In this document: positions 199 to 12,026 of the stretch, piece by piece
Layout: every line of letters begins with the position of its first letter
Position numbering within the stretch: position 1 is the stretch's first letter
Virus record (IMG/VR): IMGVR_UViG_2778260996_000018
Strand: one strand, 5' to 3'
Length of the DNA stretch: 13,235 nucleotides
Origin: a virus
Lineage: Duplodnaviria; Heunggongvirae; Uroviricota; Caudoviricetes
The notes under the pieces: model-generated
What the model saw: only the letters and a program-made list of their open reading frames with translations
Database searches by the model: none
Told to the model about the DNA's origin: nothing
Position numbers and translations under genes: made by a program

Positions 199-1917
199 AT
201 GATTTTTAGGGATAGCTTGAGAGTATTACCTTATGGTCGAGTAGATAATGATTTCTTCCAGATAGAAGAAAGACGTTCATGGAATGCAGGGCGATATTAT
301 TGGTCTAATAGAAGGATTTTTGGTTATATTGGAATTACTCAATCCAGTAATAAAGAGCTGAAAGATAAGTCGGGGAGAGAGGGATTCATAAGAAACCAGG
401 CTGCAAGAGAACTGAAAACTATTATATCTAATTTGTTAACTGAACTTGCTGATAGATTTTTTGGTTCACGTTCTGATGACCGTAAAGAGCTTTTAGAACA
501 AGTTAAGCGTGAAAAAGAGTTAAGAAAATCTGCTCAACAACAAGCTCGAAAATCAACACAAAAAAGTTTTTCAGAAGCTTTGAAGAATCAGACACCAGTT
601 CTTGATGCTTCCTTGGAGGCTGTTAAAAGGCTGAAAACTAAGCTTGATAAAACTGATGGTTCGTTAGATTTAAACTATCTTAAAATTATAGACAGTGATC
701 TTACAAACTTAGATGCGTTGCGCAGTGAAATTAAAACGCCTATCAAACCTCCAAAACTTGGAATGTATGAAGAGAAATATAGAGACTACAGAGATAAATT
801 TAATGAGTTCTCTGCGTATATTCTACAAATGAAGTTAGCAATTAATAAACTTGATTCTGAATTAAATAAACTTGAGCCTTCATTGTCAGCGAAAAATCAC
901 CTTGAAAAAAATCAAGGTATTATTAATTCTAAACTAACTAAGTTTAATAACACGATAGAGGAGAAGATACATTCTCTTTTAAAAAAATGGGCCGATGAAA
1001 TAAAGGTTGATCGAAGTGATTATTATGCTAAAACTATATCAGTTGTTGATTCAATAGATAATGATTCACAAATTGAAAATGTGTTTAATTTGCTCGATAG
1101 TTTATATGTTGAGTCAGTTGATACCCTAACTTTCAAATATCAATCAATAATAAAAGGTCTCGATAGATTATTTGAAGGTATAAACTTAGATTCAGCATTC
1201 TCATTATCTGAAGAAGAACGCTCATATTTTGAAGAAAAAGCTAAAAGTTTAAACGCGCTTGCACAGTTAGGTATTAGTGTTGAGATAATATCTCATGAAC
1301 TTGAAGAAATGGATTCTATGGTAACCAGAGGACTAAACTCTCTTCCTACTTCTGTAAAAGAACACCCTGGTTTTTCATTGGCGTTAAATGCTCACAGATC
1401 GCTTACTCAACAAATACGTTTCTTATCACCTTTGAAAATATCAGGTTATCAATCCAGGCAGAGAATAACTGGAAAAAATATCATGGATTATGTCCTGAAG
1501 TTCTTTGGGGAGCGTTTCGAACGGCAACGAATAACTATTGAATTTAGTGAAGAGTTTAAGCAAATCGCAATAACAGATATACCATCAAGGATCTATCCTG
1601 TTTTTACTAATATTATCAACAATGCAATGTATTGGGTCAGTCTGTCAAATAATAGGCTCATAAAGATTGGTTTTGTGAATTCTTTGGTTATCATAGCAAA
1701 TTCTGGTCCGGCAATTGATACCGATGATATCCCGCGACTATTTGAACTATTTTATAGCAAAAGAGCAAATGGACATGGGGTAGGTCTGTATCTATGTCGA
1801 GAAAACCTTGCTGTTGCACATCATAAAATATGGTATTCAGAACCTGATGAAGGCGATAACTATTTAATAAAAGATGACGCTAATTTTGTGATCCAGTTCA
1901 ATGGAGTGGAGTTCTAA
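199..1917 (+). CDS. Cytoplasmic sensor histidine-kinase-like protein (unknown N-terminal region, long coiled coil, C-terminal HisKA + HATPase_c)
   Basis: 572-aa ORF. Motifs read from the translation in canonical order: H-box-like ISHELEEMDS, N-box FTNIINNAMYW, G1 IANSGPAID, F-box-like FELFYS, G2 GHGVGLYL. Central ~250 aa is K/E/L-rich (coiled-coil-like); no hydrophobic TM segment. AGGA lies 4 nt upstream of ATG 199. The frame is open without a start codon from 73 to 198, so a 5' truncation cannot be excluded. Confidence 0.75.
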   Translation: MIFRDSLRVLPYGRVDNDFFQIEERRSWNAGRYYWSNRRIFGYIGITQSSNKELKDKSGREGFIRNQAARELKTIISNLLTELADRFFGSRSDDRKELLEQVKREKELRKSAQQQARKSTQKSFSEALKNQTPVLDASLEAVKRLKTKLDKTDGSLDLNYLKIIDSDLTNLDALRSEIKTPIKPPKLGMYEEKYRDYRDKFNEFSAYILQMKLAINKLDSELNKLEPSLSAKNHLEKNQGIINSKLTKFNNTIEEKIHSLLKKWADEIKVDRSDYYAKTISVVDSIDNDSQIENVFNLLDSLYVESVDTLTFKYQSIIKGLDRLFEGINLDSAFSLSEEERSYFEEKAKSLNALAQLGISVEIISHELEEMDSMVTRGLNSLPTSVKEHPGFSLALNAHRSLTQQIRFLSPLKISGYQSRQRITGKNIMDYVLKFFGERFERQRITIEFSEEFKQIAITDIPSRIYPVFTNIINNAMYWVSLSNNRLIKIGFVNSLVIIANSGPAIDTDDIPRLFELFYSKRANGHGVGLYLCRENLAVAHHKIWYSEPDEGDNYLIKDDANFVIQFNGVEF

Positions 1918-3667
1918 TATGACAGTGGCAAATTATAATTCTCTTGTCCAGAAAACTTTCTGCGAAAATGCAATTCGTTCCGTTGTCATGATTGATGACG
2001 ATTTTCTGACGTATTCTGAATCAATCAGGGCGTTGAATAACGAAGTTGATTTAGACTACAACAAAATTGACTCATCTAAACGAGCCGCTACTCTTGAGAG
2101 CTTTTTTCAATCTAAAAATATGATTTGTGATGTTGACAATGGTTCTGTTAATTTCGATGTGGATCGGATTAGAAAATCAGATCTTATTATTGTAGATTAT
2201 CATCTTGATAATAATGCACCTGATAAAACACTTAAACTATTACAAGATTTGAAAGACTCCGATCATTTAAATATGATTGTAATATATACTAGAGAGAATT
2301 TAGAAACGGTTTGGATGCAGATATCATCGACTCTCAAAGGTGCTCTGGATATCAACAGCTTGATCATTGACTACGATAATGAAGATGTCCAAAGTTATTG
2401 GGAAGACGTTGTATTACCGAACTTAAATGATAATGGTAATAAAGCTCTCACAAGAGATGAAACAATAGCCTATATTAAAGACAGTAAGCCTTGTAGAAGA
2501 ATTAAAAGATTAATACATGATGATGCTGTGTTGGAGGAACAAAAGGATAAAAACTTCATTGCAAAAATGATTGCAGAATATGCTGTGTCTAGAAATGCAA
2601 TTATTTCTAGCAACACATCTGGCAATGTCATTCGGGGTGATGAAAGCGGAGTAAAATGGATTCAATGTGGTAATATCTTTGTCTCCCTATTTCATAAGGT
2701 TCAAGATGATCATGAAAACGATGGAGATAGGATTTGGCAAACTCTCAATGATTCTCTCATTGAATGGAAACCATCTTATTATCAGTTAATAAAATCTGAA
2801 ATTCAGAATGCAATCGAAGCTGAGGCTTTATCTTTTGTAAATCATTTGGCTAACGATCATTACGGTCAAGCTGCGTGGTTAAATGAGATATTAAAATCAG
2901 ACTCGCCTGATATTAGATGTAGAAATATTGACTTTGTATTTGGTAATTTATCAGAAGAGCTTTATCAAAGACTTAAAAATAATAATACGCTGGATGAATT
3001 TATCAAAAGTGTTTTTGATAGCTATTCAAATGAATACGCTAACAGCGGAGTTGCTGCATTGCTCCAATATTGCTCTTCAAAAATGGATCTGCCATCAAAT
3101 AATGATACTTATCACGAAATGTATCATGCTTTAAATATGAATTTGTCTTCAAAGAATTTTGAAGATGGTCATATTTCTACTGGCACTATTTTCTTTGATA
3201 CAGAGTCGAACAAATGGTATTTATGTGTATCTGCGGCATGTGATTTGGTTCCTACTCAGGGTAACGACCCTCACCATGTAAGATTAAGTCCGCACAGGCT
3301 CATTAAAGTTCTGGAGCTTTTTAACGCCAGTCAGAGTAAAGCATTGCCATTTGCTGAACATTCGAAATATATATATGTAATGCATAAAAATCAAAGAAAA
3401 TATCTCTCTATTTTCGAAGGGGATAAAACGCTTCCTGTTGTTGATTATATGGTGGTGTTGAATCATGGAACAACAGTTGATGGCGAAGAAAAAAATATTA
3501 TTTCTGCCGTGTTTTTAAGTAATATGGATGGCAACGTGCAAAATGTTCCTGTCCGACTCAAACTTAAATCTCAACTGAGAACTGGTTATGCAGAAAGATA
3601 TCAGGCTATAGCGTCTCAGTATAGCTCAAGGATTGGTGTGGATTATGTATCAATGATGCTACCATAA
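1901..3667 (+). CDS. Receiver (REC) domain protein fused to a ~430-aa uncharacterised C-terminal output domain
   Basis: 588-aa ORF. N-terminal receiver signature in order: VVMIDDD (acidic pocket), DLIIVDYHLDNN (phospho-acceptor Asp), NMIVIYTRE (conserved Thr). No HTH or other motif recognisable in the C-terminal part. Overlaps the kinase gene by 17 nt; the alternative start ATG 1919 sits just after the kinase stop and is preceded by GGAGTGGAG, so it may be the true start. Confidence 0.7.
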   Translation: MEWSSNMTVANYNSLVQKTFCENAIRSVVMIDDDFLTYSESIRALNNEVDLDYNKIDSSKRAATLESFFQSKNMICDVDNGSVNFDVDRIRKSDLIIVDYHLDNNAPDKTLKLLQDLKDSDHLNMIVIYTRENLETVWMQISSTLKGALDINSLIIDYDNEDVQSYWEDVVLPNLNDNGNKALTRDETIAYIKDSKPCRRIKRLIHDDAVLEEQKDKNFIAKMIAEYAVSRNAIISSNTSGNVIRGDESGVKWIQCGNIFVSLFHKVQDDHENDGDRIWQTLNDSLIEWKPSYYQLIKSEIQNAIEAEALSFVNHLANDHYGQAAWLNEILKSDSPDIRCRNIDFVFGNLSEELYQRLKNNNTLDEFIKSVFDSYSNEYANSGVAALLQYCSSKMDLPSNNDTYHEMYHALNMNLSSKNFEDGHISTGTIFFDTESNKWYLCVSAACDLVPTQGNDPHHVRLSPHRLIKVLELFNASQSKALPFAEHSKYIYVMHKNQRKYLSIFEGDKTLPVVDYMVVLNHGTTVDGEEKNIISAVFLSNMDGNVQNVPVRLKLKSQLRTGYAERYQAIASQYSSRIGVDYVSMMLP

Positions 3668-4193: not shown

Positions 4194-5465
4194 TTAGGCT
4201 ACCAGAGCATTTGATCTTTGAGCTTGAACGTAATCACTCCACCATTGCATCAAACTCTGTCGCTCTATCAGATATTCTGCACGATTGTATGCTGCGATAA
4301 TTTCATCTTTTTTCGAGTGGGCAAGCGCTGCCTCAAGAACTTCAGCTCTGAATTTACCAGACTCCTCTGCCGCTGTTCGTGCAATAGAACGCATACCGTG
4401 AGCTACAAGCTCGCCTCCGAACCCCATTCGGATGATAGCTGCGTTGGCTGTTTGTTCATGCATATGATTAAGAGGCGCTTTTATGCTGGGGAAAACCCAT
4501 TCTCTATGCCCACTTATTGATTTCATTAATTCAAGGATGCGCAAAGCTTCTTTACTCAAAGGAACTTTGTGAAGCTTTTTCATTTTCATGAAATCAGCAG
4601 GAATGTTCCAAATGCTGTTGGTTGTATCAATATCAGACCACCTTGCGCGAACGGCTTCACCCGGACGAACCCATGTCAACAATTGCCATTCAATTAGCAT
4701 ACGTGTTTCCAACCGGATTGACGCATTCGTCAAAGATTCCATAAACCTTGGCAATTCGCTTGGGGGAAGGGCAGGCATATTTTGCTTTTTTGGTTTACTG
4801 AATCTTTGACCAAGGTTGTCAGCCGGGTTGAACTCAATAAGTTCTTCAGTAGCTGCCCACCGGAAGATTTCATTCAGACGTGAAATGATACGGCGTAGAG
4901 TTTCCAATACGCCTCGTTGCTCAATAGGATCAAGGTGTTGTTTTAAGAGCTTAGGTCGGATCTCATTGATAGGGACATTACCCAGACCGGGAAAGACATT
5001 TCTCTCTAAGCTGCGCCAGATGTCTGCTGCATGGTCTTGTGAGATACCTGATGTCTTTACCTTCTCATCTAACCATTTCCGCGCTACGGCTTGGAGAGTG
5101 TGCTCAGTAGCACTCTTTAATGCCTTCGCCTTATCGTTGTTATGGATTTGGGGATCAACACCATTTGCCAGAAAGGAGAGATATTCATCACGTAAGGCTC
5201 TGGCTCTTGCAAGGGTAAGGTGAGGATATGTCCCAAGGCTCATTTTGGTTCTTTTCTTGCTCACTGGTACTGCATACCTGAAATACCAATTTTTCTTGCC
5301 TCCTTTCGCCAAAGGAGCGATTCGTAGAATCAGACCATCACCGTCAAACAAGTTGATTTCTTTATCGGCTGGCTTGGTGCTTTTGATTTCAGTGTCAGTG
5401 AGCTTCTTAGCGATTTTTGCCATTTTGGGACCCTCGGTTTTTGGACCCTTCTTAGTGGGTCCCAT
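4194..5465 (-). CDS. int: P4-type tyrosine site-specific integrase
   Basis: 423-aa ORF. N-terminal arm-binding-type motif (LTDTEIKS..KP..KEINLFDGDGLILRI..GKKNWYFRY) typical of P4-family integrases; C-terminal catalytic region with VAHGMRSIARTAAE (H-x-x-R) and the terminal tyrosine region IIAAYNRAEYLIERQ. The more likely start is the internal ATG at 5423 (MAKIAKKLTDTEIK), which has a GAGGG Shine-Dalgarno; the first ATG at 5465 has none. The start points at the ssrA remnant, as with intA next to ssrA in E. coli K-12. Confidence 0.9.
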   Translation of the reverse strand: MGPTKKGPKTEGPKMAKIAKKLTDTEIKSTKPADKEINLFDGDGLILRIAPLAKGGKKNWYFRYAVPVSKKRTKMSLGTYPHLTLARARALRDEYLSFLANGVDPQIHNNDKAKALKSATEHTLQAVARKWLDEKVKTSGISQDHAADIWRSLERNVFPGLGNVPINEIRPKLLKQHLDPIEQRGVLETLRRIISRLNEIFRWAATEELIEFNPADNLGQRFSKPKKQNMPALPPSELPRFMESLTNASIRLETRMLIEWQLLTWVRPGEAVRARWSDIDTTNSIWNIPADFMKMKKLHKVPLSKEALRILELMKSISGHREWVFPSIKAPLNHMHEQTANAAIIRMGFGGELVAHGMRSIARTAAEESGKFRAEVLEAALAHSKKDEIIAAYNRAEYLIERQSLMQWWSDYVQAQRSNALVA

Positions 5466-7120: not shown

Positions 7121-8299
7121 TCACTTCTTCATTCCAGATTCCATTGCGGTTTTCCCGTCGTATTCAGCCAGGTATTTACCGTAATTGCGGAACAGCATTT
7201 CCGGCCCCTTATGCCCCATCTGCCCGGCAAGCCAGAAAAGGTTTACACCCTGGCTAATGTGTCTGGTGGCGAATGTGTGGCGCGTCTGGTACGGGTTACG
7301 GTAGCGCACACCAGCTTTTTTCAGGGTCGGCACCCATGCTTTTTTACGGATAGCGTCGGCGTTCGTCCAGGGATCTCCCGTTTTCGGATCGCTGAATATG
7401 AACTCACTTTTCATAAAGGTGTATTGCTTCTGCGCCTGCAGGGCCGCCAGCGCCTCACTGTTCAGCTCCACCTTACGGGTACCGGCTTTTGTCTTGGTGC
7501 CTTTAAGTACCCCTACGACACTGGCCGCCTGTATGTGCGCTGTATTACCTATAAAGTCGATATCGGTCCAACGTAATGCGCATAGCTCAGAGCTGCGTAG
7601 CCCTGTATTGAAGGCGAAGCGGAACAGATTCTGCCATTCCTGATACTTGCAGTGCTGATATATGGCACTGGTTTCCGCAGGCGCAAACGGATCAACTTCG
7701 TAATCGTCGGCGTTCGGTTTACTGTCGACCACGTGATACCGGCTGGCGCTGACAAGAGTTACCGGGTTAATAGTCAACAGGCCATCAGTTACAGCCTCAT
7801 CAATGGCGCTGCGCAGAAATGACAGGTTATTCCTGATTGTTTTCAGCTTAGTTTTTCGGCTGGCTATCCAATTTTTTAGTACCGCAGGCGTCAATTCTGT
7901 TACATGTAGTTTATGTAGTTCTGATAGTGCTGATAGACATTTTTCGTAACCGCCAATGGTTGACGGCGACAGATTGCGGTTCATGCAAATTTTCAGGTAT
8001 TCATCAAGATAGGACTTAATATTTTTGGTTTTCTTTACTACACCGAATAACTCCAGTTTTTTGGAACTGGGGAAATATTTCGCATATTCAAACGTTCCGC
8101 TGGCGATCTGATTTTGTATCTCCCCTAGCAGGCGCTCAGCATATTTAATACCACGTGTATTTGCCTCAAGCCGAGACAGGGGCTCCCTGCAAAGAACCCC
8201 TTTATATGTGAAAGTGATAACTAGTGTTGAAGCAGTTTTATGCTTACGAATAGTTACTCCTCTTGGCAGAGATAATAATCCTTGTTCTTTCTTGCCCAT
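7121..8299 (-). CDS. int: Lambda-type (phage) tyrosine integrase
   Basis: 392-aa ORF. Catalytic signature near the C-terminus: PYQTRHTFATRHISQGVNLFWLAGQMGHKGPEMLFRNYGKYL (R, H-x-x-R, H, Y). AGAGG Shine-Dalgarno upstream. Its 3' end faces the att remnant, as in lambda where int is transcribed toward attP. Confidence 0.9.
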   Translation of the reverse strand: MGKKEQGLLSLPRGVTIRKHKTASTLVITFTYKGVLCREPLSRLEANTRGIKYAERLLGEIQNQIASGTFEYAKYFPSSKKLELFGVVKKTKNIKSYLDEYLKICMNRNLSPSTIGGYEKCLSALSELHKLHVTELTPAVLKNWIASRKTKLKTIRNNLSFLRSAIDEAVTDGLLTINPVTLVSASRYHVVDSKPNADDYEVDPFAPAETSAIYQHCKYQEWQNLFRFAFNTGLRSSELCALRWTDIDFIGNTAHIQAASVVGVLKGTKTKAGTRKVELNSEALAALQAQKQYTFMKSEFIFSDPKTGDPWTNADAIRKKAWVPTLKKAGVRYRNPYQTRHTFATRHISQGVNLFWLAGQMGHKGPEMLFRNYGKYLAEYDGKTAMESGMKK

Positions 8300-8987: not shown

Positions 8988-9556
8988 TCATTCCGGATGC
9001 TCCTGAGCCACATTGAAATCGCCATGATCACGACAAGGCATCACAACAAATTCAGGATTGCCATACATTGAGTTGATGATGGAATCAAACTGAATTCTGA
9101 CCGCTTGCCCGTCACCGGAGGAACGTAACTGGACGGGAATAAATTTACGCTCACGACCAAACATCTTCTCTGGATAACTCAGGTAACCCGCCTGGATCAC
9201 CGGGTGTGTACAGAGGTCAAATTTTTTCGGAATGATGCGTTCCAAATCCGGAAAACAACCGTCCACCAATTTAATGCCGGTAATGGACAGCCGGCGCTGA
9301 AACTGGTCGCGATGAACAGGATCGGCTCTTTACTAAAAATCAGCTCTGTCGTTTCGGCTTTGGCCGGGACGCCACCTTCGAACTGGACAATGATGTTTTT
9401 CTTCGTCCGGATGCCGTGAGTCATGCGCAGTGCTACGAAACCATTGGTTGCCTCAATATGTTTTGGCGTGATGTGAAGACCGTTCAGGTAATAACGAACG
9501 TCGTTTTTAGCAGCGCACACCAGAGCGGCGCGAATAAGTTTTGACTGGATGATCAT
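8988..9556 (-). pseudogene. Sliding-clamp (DnaN, DNA polymerase III beta) domain II-III-like gene, split between two reading frames
   Basis: The N-part (ORF 9197-9556) contains DVRYYLNG, an exact 8-mer shared with E. coli DnaN as I recall it. The C-part (ORF 8988-9269 frame) contains KLVDGCFPD (DnaN: KLVDGRFPD) and EFVVMPCR (DnaN: AYVVMPMR) in the right order. The two halves are in different frames, separated by about 56-59 nt near 9287-9345 with in-frame stops. Confidence 0.5.
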
Positions 9557-10302
9557 GCTTTATCCTCCCATCCGATTACCTGAAAAAGCCCCATCTTCGG
9601 GTGATACCAGCGTGTGCCGCGTGGTTCAGCCTCTGACATCATTTGGTGGAACGCCGCCATAAATGTCTCAAGCTCGACGACAGCCCTGCGAGACAACAGA
9701 CCGTCCGGAGTCATAAATTCGTGCGTGTCGGTAGGGATGTGGTAGGCGTTGACCAGATTCCGACACTTGGCGTCACTCATTCCGCTTTTGGCTACCACCT
9801 GGCGGTAACCGACATATCCGGTGCGCATTGTGCCGCGTTTGATGTTCTCCACAGCTTTGGTGACCGTTTCGATCTTCTCTTCAACATGACTCAGGCGCTT
9901 CTGCTGGCGAACGGCATCGGCGGCCATTGCAGCGATCATCTCCATTTCCGTCAGCGGCGCGTGAGTTCGGAAATAGCTGTTAACCAGTTCGCGCTGAACC
10001 TGCCATGCAAGAGCATCGTTAAAAGGCTTCGTCAACATCAGGTAACCAGACTCGAAAAGAATGATCCCTTTGGCAGTTCGCGCGGCAAAGGCATCAGAAA
10101 GTGACTCCGTACGTATTACGTCCGCAGTCATTTCAAGAAAATCCACCCCTTCGATAAAGTGAGAACGGTTGCGGTTAAACGCAGCACGGGCGGTACCTTC
10201 CGGGCGCTGGTGGACGTCATCAATTATTGCAAATGTCACAACACGCTGACCGCGATATTCGATTACCGGAAACTGTTTGTTGTTGATGGTTACAATATTC
10301 AT
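9553..10302 (-). CDS. ORF6N-domain phage antirepressor-like protein
   Basis: N-terminus MNIVTINNKQFPVIEYRGQRVVTFAIIDDVHQRPEGTARAAFNRNRSHFIEGVDF resembles the ORF6N/antirepressor N-terminal domain. Start chosen at ATG 10302 (GGAG 6 nt upstream) rather than the ORF-track ATG at 10377, which would overlap the upstream gene. The stop overlaps the start of the clamp-like gene (ATGA). Confidence 0.6.
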   Translation of the reverse strand: MNIVTINNKQFPVIEYRGQRVVTFAIIDDVHQRPEGTARAAFNRNRSHFIEGVDFLEMTADVIRTESLSDAFAARTAKGIILFESGYLMLTKPFNDALAWQVQRELVNSYFRTHAPLTEMEMIAAMAADAVRQQKRLSHVEEKIETVTKAVENIKRGTMRTGYVGYRQVVAKSGMSDAKCRNLVNAYHIPTDTHEFMTPDGLLSRRAVVELETFMAAFHQMMSEAEPRGTRWYHPKMGLFQVIGWEDKA

Positions 10303-10345
10303 TTTTATCTCCAGACAGCCCGGCGTGTAATACCGGGCATATGTA

Positions 10346-11173
10346 TTACTTAACCTGAATAAATGGTGTGTTGGCACCGCTGGTCATGTATTGCGGCAGT
10401 GTACCGTTCCACTTGTTGATGGCTTCCAGCTCCATAACACCGGGGTTCTGGCGCAGAGCTTCACCGCGTAAACGAATAGCATCGGCTTCGGCCTGGGCTT
10501 TTGTGCGAATCGCATCTGCCTGTCCGGCAGCTTCCGCGCGCAACATGTTGGCTTCCGCTTCGCGCTGTTTTACTTCCTGCTCGCGTTGCAGGGTTTTCTG
10601 GTTCGCCGTGACTTTGGCATTAATGCTGTCGATAACAGTAGGTGGGTACTCCGGCTTACCCACATATGAGAGGCTCATTACCTGAATACCGATGGGCGTC
10701 ATTTCTTCCTGAATGTCTTTAAGAGCTGCATCCAGCAGCTCAGACTTGCCGCCGTCGATAAATTTGTCGGTGGTCATTTTGCTGGCCAGTCGGTTGAGTG
10801 CGTCGGCTATCTTCTGGCGCAGGTCGGTGTCGGTAATGTCGTCCACGCCTTTGCGGTAGGTCTGAAAGACTGTGGTAACTTTGGATGGATCAACTTTGTA
10901 GGCCACGCCGATGTGATAGCCGATGGTTGTACCGTCACTCATCTGGAAACTGAATGGATCATCGTAGGTCTTCATCTGCTTAAAGGTCGGGAAGATGTAA
11001 ACCTCAGTGTTCCATCCCGTCCAGTAGCGCCCAACACCGACCACTTCACCGACGCCTTTATCGTCGCCCAGTTTGTTTACTTTGATGCCCACATTACCAG
11101 GCTCAACGCGATCGCAACCGACAAGGCCAATGGTCGGCAGAACAAGGGCTAAAGCAAAAAGTAATTTTTTCAT
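10346..11173 (-). CDS. SPFH/Band-7 (prohibitin/HflK-like) domain lipoprotein
   Basis: 275-aa ORF. Signal peptide with lipobox (MKKLLFALALVLPTIGLVGC), SPFH-like core, and a C-terminal A/E/Q/R-rich coiled coil (QREQEVKQREAEANMLRAEAAGQADAIR...) as in HflK/HflC-type proteins. Confidence 0.8.
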   Translation of the reverse strand: MKKLLFALALVLPTIGLVGCDRVEPGNVGIKVNKLGDDKGVGEVVGVGRYWTGWNTEVYIFPTFKQMKTYDDPFSFQMSDGTTIGYHIGVAYKVDPSKVTTVFQTYRKGVDDITDTDLRQKIADALNRLASKMTTDKFIDGGKSELLDAALKDIQEEMTPIGIQVMSLSYVGKPEYPPTVIDSINAKVTANQKTLQREQEVKQREAEANMLRAEAAGQADAIRTKAQAEADAIRLRGEALRQNPGVMELEAINKWNGTLPQYMTSGANTPFIQVK

Positions 11174-11418: not shown

Positions 11419-11811
11419 TCAGAATGGTTTTGTTGCCATCAGTTCGTAATATCCGGCGCTCCATGTGTCATATTTTCTGAACCATTTTTCTGTATACTGT
11501 TTCCTGGCGATGAGTCTGCGCAGTCGTCTGATTGTTCGCTGGTGTGCGCGGGTATACTCTGTGGTTGATTCTCCACGTTTCCATATCTCATTCCTGTTGA
11601 AGATAAAACGCTTGTCAGGATAGCGTTGTCGGAATCCTGAACGTTCAAAAGCGCGGGTGGTCATAAAGAATGCCAGGTAACGAATTGCCGTTTTTCGGGT
11701 GAGGCATTTTTTTGTTCTTCCGTGGCGTGTTACAAAAAATAACGGGCCGACGGGTGTATCATGTTTCTGTAATGCCTGGTCAATGGTGCTGGCGGTGCGG
11801 TTGTCGATCAT
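11419..11811 (-). CDS. Hypothetical basic protein
   Basis: 130-aa ORF, Arg/Lys-rich; ATGA overlap with the upstream 72-aa ORF. No family recognised. Confidence 0.5.
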   Translation of the reverse strand: MIDNRTASTIDQALQKHDTPVGPLFFVTRHGRTKKCLTRKTAIRYLAFFMTTRAFERSGFRQRYPDKRFIFNRNEIWKRGESTTEYTRAHQRTIRRLRRLIARKQYTEKWFRKYDTWSAGYYELMATKPF

Positions 11812-12026
11812 TTCTTTATTTCTCCCGAATAACGTTCATGACTCATTACTTCCCAGTTCCGGCCGTCGTCTTTCGATAACAGCCGCCAGCGACGGTTAAC
11901 CTTCAGACTGAGATATCCGGTGCGCTGTATCCGATGCGGAAATATCCGTCGGCATCGGTACAACAACAGGACCTGCAATGCCTGCCGGTGGATCCGCTCA
12001 GGAATGCGTGTTGCTGTTAATGCCAC
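11808..12026 (-). CDS. Hypothetical small basic protein
   Basis: 72-aa ORF, Arg-rich, overlapping the upstream ORF by 29 nt. Coding status uncertain. Confidence 0.35.
   Translation of the reverse strand: MALTATRIPERIHRQALQVLLLYRCRRIFPHRIQRTGYLSLKVNRRWRLLSKDDGRNWEVMSHERYSGEIKK

Follow-up and report, generated by a model that had tools for sequence, protein, structure and literature searches.

The clamp-binding motifs (QL[SD]LF) of polymerases, of the clamp loader subunit delta, of Hda and of MutS/MutL dock in a hydrophobic groove of the bacterial sliding clamp, DnaN. A shorter form of the E. coli clamp, beta*, is reportedly a UV-inducible product of an internal start in dnaN that comprises domains II and III (Skaliter et al. 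and Paz-Elizur et al., J Biol Chem 1996); it is said to be a trimer, to oligomerise and to stimulate Pol III. Short phage homologues of the beta subunit (polIII-beta) have been described as spanning 'the second and third domains' (PMC3201878). Kazlauskas and Venclovas (2011, PMC3201878) also tie a high isoelectric point (pI) to clamp homologues that form no ring and have no clamp loader. The gene described here belongs with the short phage homologues. It lies in a 13,235-nucleotide stretch of a virus of the Caudoviricetes (IMG/VR record IMGVR_UViG_2778260996_000018), the whole of which is referred to below as the window. Positions 8988-9556 of the window, on the minus strand, hold the two out-of-frame halves of one DnaN-like gene, a 569-bp frameshifted allele of a 570-bp prophage gene for a 189-aa mini beta-clamp (mini-clamp), as seen from translations, from alignment with WP_000586690.1 and from the call of the NCBI Prokaryotic Genome Annotation Pipeline (PGAP). 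The window copy is a pseudogene of an accessory gene in the early-left region of a lambdoid prophage, inactivated by the loss of one base.

To locate the lesion, the window copy was aligned pairwise with its intact counterpart in E. coli JNEC-KY202, a gene of 570 bp that encodes the 189-aa WP_000586690.1, named 'beta clamp domain-containing protein' in RefSeq. The two copies are colinear over 570 columns, with one 1-nt gap, four substitutions and zero inserted DNA. The missing base is the G at gene position 238 (alignment column 238), where the intact gene has GATC-G-CTG and the window GATC-CTG; read on the plus strand, a C is lost between 9319 and 9320. Two of the four substitutions are non-synonymous, giving the window allele S40F and P146S relative to the common intact allele. 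The first is codon 40, TTC, at 9437-9439, and the second is codon 146 of the intact gene, TCC, at 9119-9121.

All parts of the gene are on the minus strand. Its ATG at 9556 overlaps the TGA of the upstream ORF6N gene (9553-10377) as ATGA and is preceded, 7 nt to its 5' side, by a GGAGG ribosome-binding site (9564-9568). The frame from this ATG reads MIIQSKLIRAALVCAAKNDVRYYLNG... (at length, MIIQSKLIRAALVCAAKNDVRYYLNGLHITPKHIEATNGFVALRM...) and runs for 119 codons to a premature TGA at 9197-9199. Its in-frame 5' part, codons 1-79 (9320-9556), takes in domain II's first beta-alpha-beta-beta-beta motif and runs into the second; it encodes KNDVRYYLNG, the counterpart of DnaN 148-157, and ATNGF, the counterpart of DnaN 171-175. 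The out-of-frame 3' part (8988-9319) starts with the two remaining nucleotides of codon 80 and runs through codons 81-189 to the native stop. Encoded in it are the remainder of domain II, the linker KLVDGCFPDLERIIPK (DnaN 235-250) and a half domain III that ends in FVVMPCR (DnaN 359-365). This second frame carries ...KLVDGCFPDLERIIPKK...EFVVMPCRDHG..., or in a longer reading ...AVHRDQFQRRLSITGIKLVDGCFPDLERIIPKKFDL...GNPEFVVMPCRDHGDFNVAQEHPE followed by the stop, and ends at 8988. A sequence-only reading of the window had picked out DVRYYLNG, KLVDGCFPD and EFVVMPCR in the order that they have in DnaN, and the translations bear this out.

The shifted product comprises 79 native residues and 40 nonsense residues. 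The TGA that closes it overlaps a GTG at 9198-9200 as GTGA, and this GTG opens a 70-aa open reading frame (ORF) that corresponds to native residues 120-189. Both the 119-aa and the 70-aa ORF are annotated by gene callers in public assemblies. Native residues 80-119, with which domain II ends and which supply the groove wall and the linker (equivalents of P242, R246 and V247), are encoded in neither product, so the window allele is presumably inactive and would not yield a functional protein. The A6 run in the codons for IIPKK (9222-9227), a repeated frameshift site in other alleles, is unbroken in the window.

The sequence-only reading had ascribed the disruption to a frameshift or to a ~56-59-nt insertion, and had kept sequencing error as the alternative. 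The frameshift is borne out, with the halves in different frames on either side of 9319/9320. What spoke for an insertion of mobile or foreign DNA parting the halves was solely the impression that FIFTSKLVDG is contiguous in DnaN; an insertion is ruled out by the colinear alignment with its single 1-nt gap, and the stretch said to have no counterpart (9287-9345), which encodes ...SKEPI followed by AVHRDQFQRRLSITGI..., is the divergent equivalent of DnaN ...NNIRAHVGDFIFTS, residues ~213-234, in a profile alignment (hhalign). An error of sequencing or assembly in a gene that is intact in the organism has in its favour that single-base indels are the commonest type of assembly error, and that the 570-bp form is found in 55 of the 60 complete E. 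coli genomes in which the gene is present (megablast). The chance of such an error is nevertheless negligible, because the exact 119-aa product recurs on 203 contigs (288 public collection blocks) from many independent assemblies, among them the finished chromosome of E. coli E110019. That strain holds the 569-bp form, the only one among the 60 complete genomes, in a copy 100% identical to the window across the gene and marked by PGAP as a 'frameshifted' pseudogene. The ten listed places of the 119-aa product are independently assembled records, eight from NCBI assemblies and two from metagenome scaffolds of the ENA, and among them are prophages in three integration contexts, whose integrases differ in length (392, 428 and 437 aa) and which occupy different chromosomal sites. 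The deletion site, between GAGCCGATC and CTGTTC, has no homopolymer and no slippery heptamer in its local sequence, and a variant (P0055) has the same deletion with one further substitution. That the two ORFs instead make up a functional split gene, or that programmed frameshifting bypasses the shift so that an active protein persists, is very improbable. The wide spread of the allele and the GTGA overlap would suit such a gene, and termination-reinitiation is conceivable at the overlap. Against it stand the absence of residues 80-119 and their linker from both products, the want of a slippery heptamer where the base was lost, the pseudogene call in E110019, and some 150 diverse family representatives that are all single ORFs of ~170-215 aa. 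Programmed ribosomal frameshifting was considered separately and rejected, as there is no slippery run at the site and the homologues are single-frame. When intact homologues were compared, as the sequence-only reading had proposed, the gene proved to be one ORF of 570 bp and 189 aa, which fixed the place of the indel; since intact homologues are single ORFs, its other option of two genuine small genes does not apply.

The deletion is thus a real, circulating null allele of a dispensable prophage gene. The intact allele is the commoner, with at least 1000 contigs vs 203 for the frameshift product. Draft assemblies of enteropathogenic E. coli such as E128010 share the window allele. One more of the 60 complete genomes, E. 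coli DETEC-S792 (NZ_CP116067.1, 1219765-1220335), has a 571-bp copy that is probably another independent frameshift. The finished E110019 chromosome also has an IS3-family element of ~1.3 kb just left of the position corresponding to window 8816 (L002, 7745-8958), which is absent from the window; the window thus stems from another assembly or a related strain.

Additional information about the protein can be garnered from comparison with DnaN. Searched as a single sequence, the protein stays under threshold for Pfam DNA_pol3_beta_2 (E=0.005; PF02767, 17.4 bits vs a cut-off of 27) and for TIGR00663 (E=5e-4; 19.1 bits vs 137.65), so that the cut-offs of the curated DnaN families are not reached; PF00712 and PF02768 gave zero matches, and phrog_947 matched at E=2.5e-4. 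A profile of 30 family members searched against the PDB found the E. coli beta clamp at E=4e-13, and all 42 sequence matches were beta clamps. Alignment by hhalign placed residues 5-117 on DnaN 136-256 with 98.3% probability. An AlphaFold2 (AF2) model of an 82%-identical homologue had a predicted local distance difference test score (pLDDT) of 90.2 and a predicted template modelling score (pTM) of 0.86, and all 50 matches listed for it by Foldseek in the PDB were beta clamps (E=1.6e-6; template modelling score, TM, ~0.6 normalised on the query). By profile and by model, the similarity to DnaN is far beyond chance and bespeaks common ancestry, in agreement with the homology proposed from the letters alone.

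The extent of that homology was defined with a family hidden Markov model (HMM) built from 148 sequences that have a median of 29% identity with the intact protein of E. coli, and with pieces of DnaN taken from an E. coli sequence verified identical to that of 1MMI. The second half of domain III, DnaN 306-366, scored 21.1 bits against the C-terminal module of the family, and the first half, DnaN 250-311, scored 1.7 bits. A DnaN construct without 253-311 scored 85.6 bits, and one without 299-356 scored 71.7 bits. The HMM covers DnaN 136-252 and 312-365 only, with the family motif IGFNxxY aligned to DnaN 317-323; domain I and DnaN 253-311 have no counterpart in this alignment, and I272/L273 map to nothing. 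These two residues are on the domain III side of the head-to-tail dimer interface of DnaN, to which domain I also contributes. From the fragment scores together with the predicted secondary structure, the intact protein is read as domain II followed by the II-III linker and then DnaN 312-366, the half of domain III that comes second in the sequence and adjoins domain II. The sequence-only reading had assigned the gene to domains II-III without domain I; the absence of domain I and the presence of domain II hold, and of domain III only the second half is kept. An arrangement of the first half of domain III plus the last strand, suggested by the first PDB profile alignment, was rejected, as fragment scoring favours the second half. 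In the AF2 model the chain is made of three beta-alpha-beta-beta-beta motifs, the second without its helix. The helix-less position corresponds to DnaN residues ~195-210 in the HMM alignment, which form helix alpha2 of domain II, and this helix is probably absent from the mini-clamp.

Compared with E. coli DnaN (PDB 1MMI, 2POL), the mini-clamp is therefore homologous throughout domain II and the linker and in the final beta-alpha-beta-beta-beta motif of domain III, and RYYLNG, TxGH, KLVDGxFPD and VVMPxR are common to both, with the docking-groove residues largely kept. DnaN is a protein of 366 aa, acidic, with domain I, whereas the mini-clamp is one of 189 aa, basic, phage-borne and dispensable; the first half of domain III, I272/L273 included, has no mini-clamp counterpart, and helix alpha2 of domain II is not predicted. 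Beta* also lacks domain I and keeps the groove, but it is said to have the whole of domain III and to be encoded inside dnaN, in contrast to the half domain III and the separate, divergent gene of the mini-clamp.

Conservation within the family is concentrated at the groove. Across the 148 sequences 24 positions are at least 70% conserved, and 11 of them are equivalents of residues of the groove for clamp-binding motifs (R152, Y154, L155, T172, G174, H175, P242, Y323, M362, P363 and R365), each 80-99% conserved; most of the other conserved positions flank groove residues (D150, G157, D173, D238, G239, D243). In DnaN the residues L177, P242, V247 and M362 are delta contacts, and P363, M364 and L366 are also in the groove list (PMC2685083, which also mentions that the clamp in the delta complex was monomeric); V247, P242, R152, R246, M362 and T172 contact the groove inhibitor RU7 (PMC3335792). 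With the groove list taken from these papers alone, enrichment relative to the other aligned positions gave a Fisher p of 0.0046, and with the list widened by residues of the Pol IV peptide complex, 2.7e-5. Nearly all residues that line the hydrophobic groove would thus be kept in the intact protein, and binding of clamp-binding motifs is predicted.

The family to which the intact gene belongs is large. A profile search of 1.84 billion representatives found 1094 clusters at E<=1e-10; the best 150 of these are nearly all of ~170-215 aa, with a few shorter fragments, and at 50% identity at least 150 clusters are formed. By tblastn a homologue is present in 253 phage records, and carriers include phages of Salmonella, Escherichia, Klebsiella, Vibrio, Acinetobacter, Burkholderia and Shewanella as well as many Enterobacterales prophages. 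The intact homologue matched phrog_3007 along residues 1-179 of its 189 (E=5.8e-65), and the same fold is shared by many viral models in BFVD, of 180-210 aa, with TM values of 0.7-0.8. The short phage polIII-beta homologues (PMC3201878; phrog_3007; Bcep43 gp15, 'DNA Pol III b subunit fragment') are the same family. They are single ORFs, unlike the window copy with its 1-nt deletion, and the published description gives them a full third domain where only its second half is found here. A literature search found genome announcements and the one sentence of the 2011 survey, and no functional study of any family member. Annotations differ between records: 'DNA polymerase III beta subunit', 'beta clamp domain protein' and 'RusA-like Holliday junction resolvase' are all in use. 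The RusA-like label, which comes from phrog_3007 and stands, through RefSeq and pharokka-style annotation, on phage records such as L003 (4989-5525) and L007 (3998-4579), is a propagated misannotation; Pfam searched to E 10 finds DNA_pol3_beta_2 only, and all PDB and fold matches are clamps. The protein studied here has a pI of 9.1; that of E. coli DnaN is 5.25, and its corresponding segments have one of 5.57. Family pI has a median of 8.4 and is above 7.5 in 61% of members and below 6.5 in 26%.

Loss of the gene recurs in prophages. Close prophage homologues are independently disrupted after residues 53, 77, 79, 85-88 and 126, the break after residue 79 being a second event in the other frame, and one homologue type has an in-frame internal deletion. 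The A6 run (IIPKK, residues 111-112) is broken in five clusters (P0041, P0049, P0050, P0051 and P0054), with shifts in both directions. P0041 comprises 64 member sequences, mostly from Shigella flexneri and E. coli; its shift yields a 119-aa product that, with the GTG-started 70-aa ORF, would span nearly the whole protein in two pieces. In Salmonella phage Fels-1 (L005, 2696-3330) STM0896 and STM0896.2n retain only the equivalent of residues 80-187; this remnant shares the reading frame of the second ORF, and an unrelated ORF upstream overlaps it. Remnants of this C-terminal kind appear to make up phrog_27198 (81 aa). Such repeated loss is in keeping with an accessory gene that can be dispensed with and that may burden the lysogen.

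The gene is prophage-borne, as the sequence-only reading had proposed; it occupies the early-left region, with int/xis on one side and the repressor genes on the other. In the window, genes for ParE-like, SPFH and ORF6N proteins are upstream of the mini-clamp and xis/int downstream; the helicase and toprim replication genes are beyond the repressor genes, on the other side from the mini-clamp. ORF6N (KilA-N-like) and SPFH/Band 7 genes (9553-11173, minus strand) are directly upstream, and the ParE-like toxin gene is farther away (11808-12026). PADLOC gave zero matches to defence-system models for the intact protein or eight neighbouring ORFs, and QL[SD]LF is absent from the 14 ORFs of the prophage part of the window, which contain one degenerate match; a partner is therefore likely to be a host protein. 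No Rfam family reached the gathering score anywhere in the window, and an RNA element was rejected. In unrelated lytic phages the mini-clamp gene typically stands by itself within head/tail modules, in many cases on the strand opposite to its neighbours. In Snoke (L008, 3965-4486) it is on the opposite strand with its own ribosome-binding site and bidirectional terminators, in the manner of a moron; in Bcep43 (L007, 3998-4579) and Shewanella phage 1/41 (L004, 5001-5549) it is on the opposite strand in the head/tail block. In Cato (L006, 3977-4534) it shares the strand of the tail genes on either side, and in Bas77, one of the lytic carriers Bas77-79 of the BASEL collection, it lies amid methyltransferase, ParB-like and anti-restriction genes. 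A polymerase gene was beside the mini-clamp in none of eight contexts, and no linkage to replication genes was seen there, unlike in phage Loki, where a 332-aa clamp homologue abuts the polymerase gene.

The other end of the window is of a different kind. Two integrases are present, the prophage integrase (7121-8299) and a P4-type integrase (Arm-DNA-bind_3 and Phage_int_M). The latter has as neighbours the gene of a HATPase_c/HEF_HK protein (572 aa) and that of a Response_reg_2 protein (588 aa). Together these genes (199-3667, plus strand; 4194-5465, minus strand) form a separate integrated island that directly adjoins the prophage integrase and is possibly a conflict system.

The reading that is somewhat favoured is that the window copy is a pseudogene and the intact protein a non-ring clamp derivative, reduced to the groove, that binds host clamp-partner proteins. 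Both groove walls are kept, and nothing in the protein corresponds to the ring-closing elements of DnaN. As sequence and model suggest, the protein would lack a DnaN-type ring and would act as a soluble or DNA-associated groove module for the clamp-binding motifs of host replication and repair proteins. By competing with the host clamp it may titrate such partners away and so interfere with the host; competition of this kind is preferred because the gene is placed in the manner of a moron and is repeatedly lost from prophages. The lone placement, with no adjoining polymerase in eight contexts, argues against a standard processivity factor. The 'replisome hijacker or inhibitor' raised in the sequence-only reading would be compatible with the conserved docking groove. 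A stronger form, in which the family is a new kind of host-takeover protein, a clamp mimic trimmed to both walls of the docking cleft that titrates or redirects all motif-bearing host proteins (candidate targets being Pol III alpha, clamp loader delta, Hda, Pol II/IV/V and MutS/MutL) and inactivation reflects its cost to the lysogen, is entertained only tentatively. Such a role would have in common with Twort gp168 (PDB 7EVP) and Mu MuC (PMC12867686) the manipulation of the beta-clamp network by a phage. These two proteins bind the host clamp, whereas the mini-clamp is a clamp derivative that would compete for its partners, and there is no homology. Several observations weigh against the favoured reading. 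What it says of binding, oligomeric state and phenotype is drawn from sequence and a predicted structure. The equivalents of L177, V344, S346 and M364 are not conserved in the family, and position 40 (H175 in DnaN), a histidine in 89% of the family, is serine (intact) or phenylalanine (window) in this E. coli lineage. Groove enrichment may in part reflect fold constraint and alignment bias, as groove residues are the most conserved in DnaN and the profile alignment anchors there. A family that is mostly basic is no less compatible with direct DNA binding and recruitment than with a pure decoy. The wide spread of the frameshift allele shows dispensability and is silent on function, and the GTGA stop-start could permit a 70-aa C-terminal fragment, so that some product may still be made.

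The basic charge favours another account, in which the window copy is still a pseudogene and the intact protein is a non-ring DNA tether functionally like UL42 or UL44. A basic surface would keep it on DNA, and the groove would recruit to phage DNA a polymerase with a clamp-binding motif, in the absence of a clamp loader and to the benefit of phage replication instead of inhibiting it. It would draw on the pI of 9.1, on the predominance of basic family members, on the published link between high pI and loader-less non-ring homologues (PMC3201878), on the conserved groove and on the lack of a counterpart to the ring interfaces. The acidic quarter of the family (26%), the want of replication-gene linkage in the eight contexts, a DNA-facing helix of domain II that appears to be missing in the model, and recurrent prophage loss, which shows the gene to be unneeded for propagation, make it unlikely, though less so than the remaining alternative. 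UL42 of herpes simplex virus and UL44 of human cytomegalovirus are themselves PCNA-like proteins of eukaryotic viruses with two full domains; the mini-clamp is of another lineage, and its DNA binding is hypothetical. A closed ring made by new oligomerisation, from four protomers of 1.5 domains or from dimers that pair their half domains, would make the protein a true processivity clamp and is judged improbable. Three motifs per chain in four chains would give the twelve motifs of a clamp ring, and the reported beta* trimer implies that clamp domains can re-pair. But domain I and I272/L273, the latter interface residues, have no counterpart, the model predicts each protomer to be short of one inner helix, and no phage clamp loader or polymerase is linked in the contexts seen. 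A high pI is also atypical of ring clamps (PMC3201878).

The window copy is routine, and equivalent copies are already 'frameshifted' in RefSeq; its value lies in the widespread, inconsistently annotated and uncharacterised family behind it. The domain map turns a vague 'clamp fragment' into a testable hypothesis of clamp mimicry by a groove-only derivative. If true, this would point to control of host replication and repair by phages through mimicry, and would provide a minimal scaffold of a groove that is an antibiotic target.

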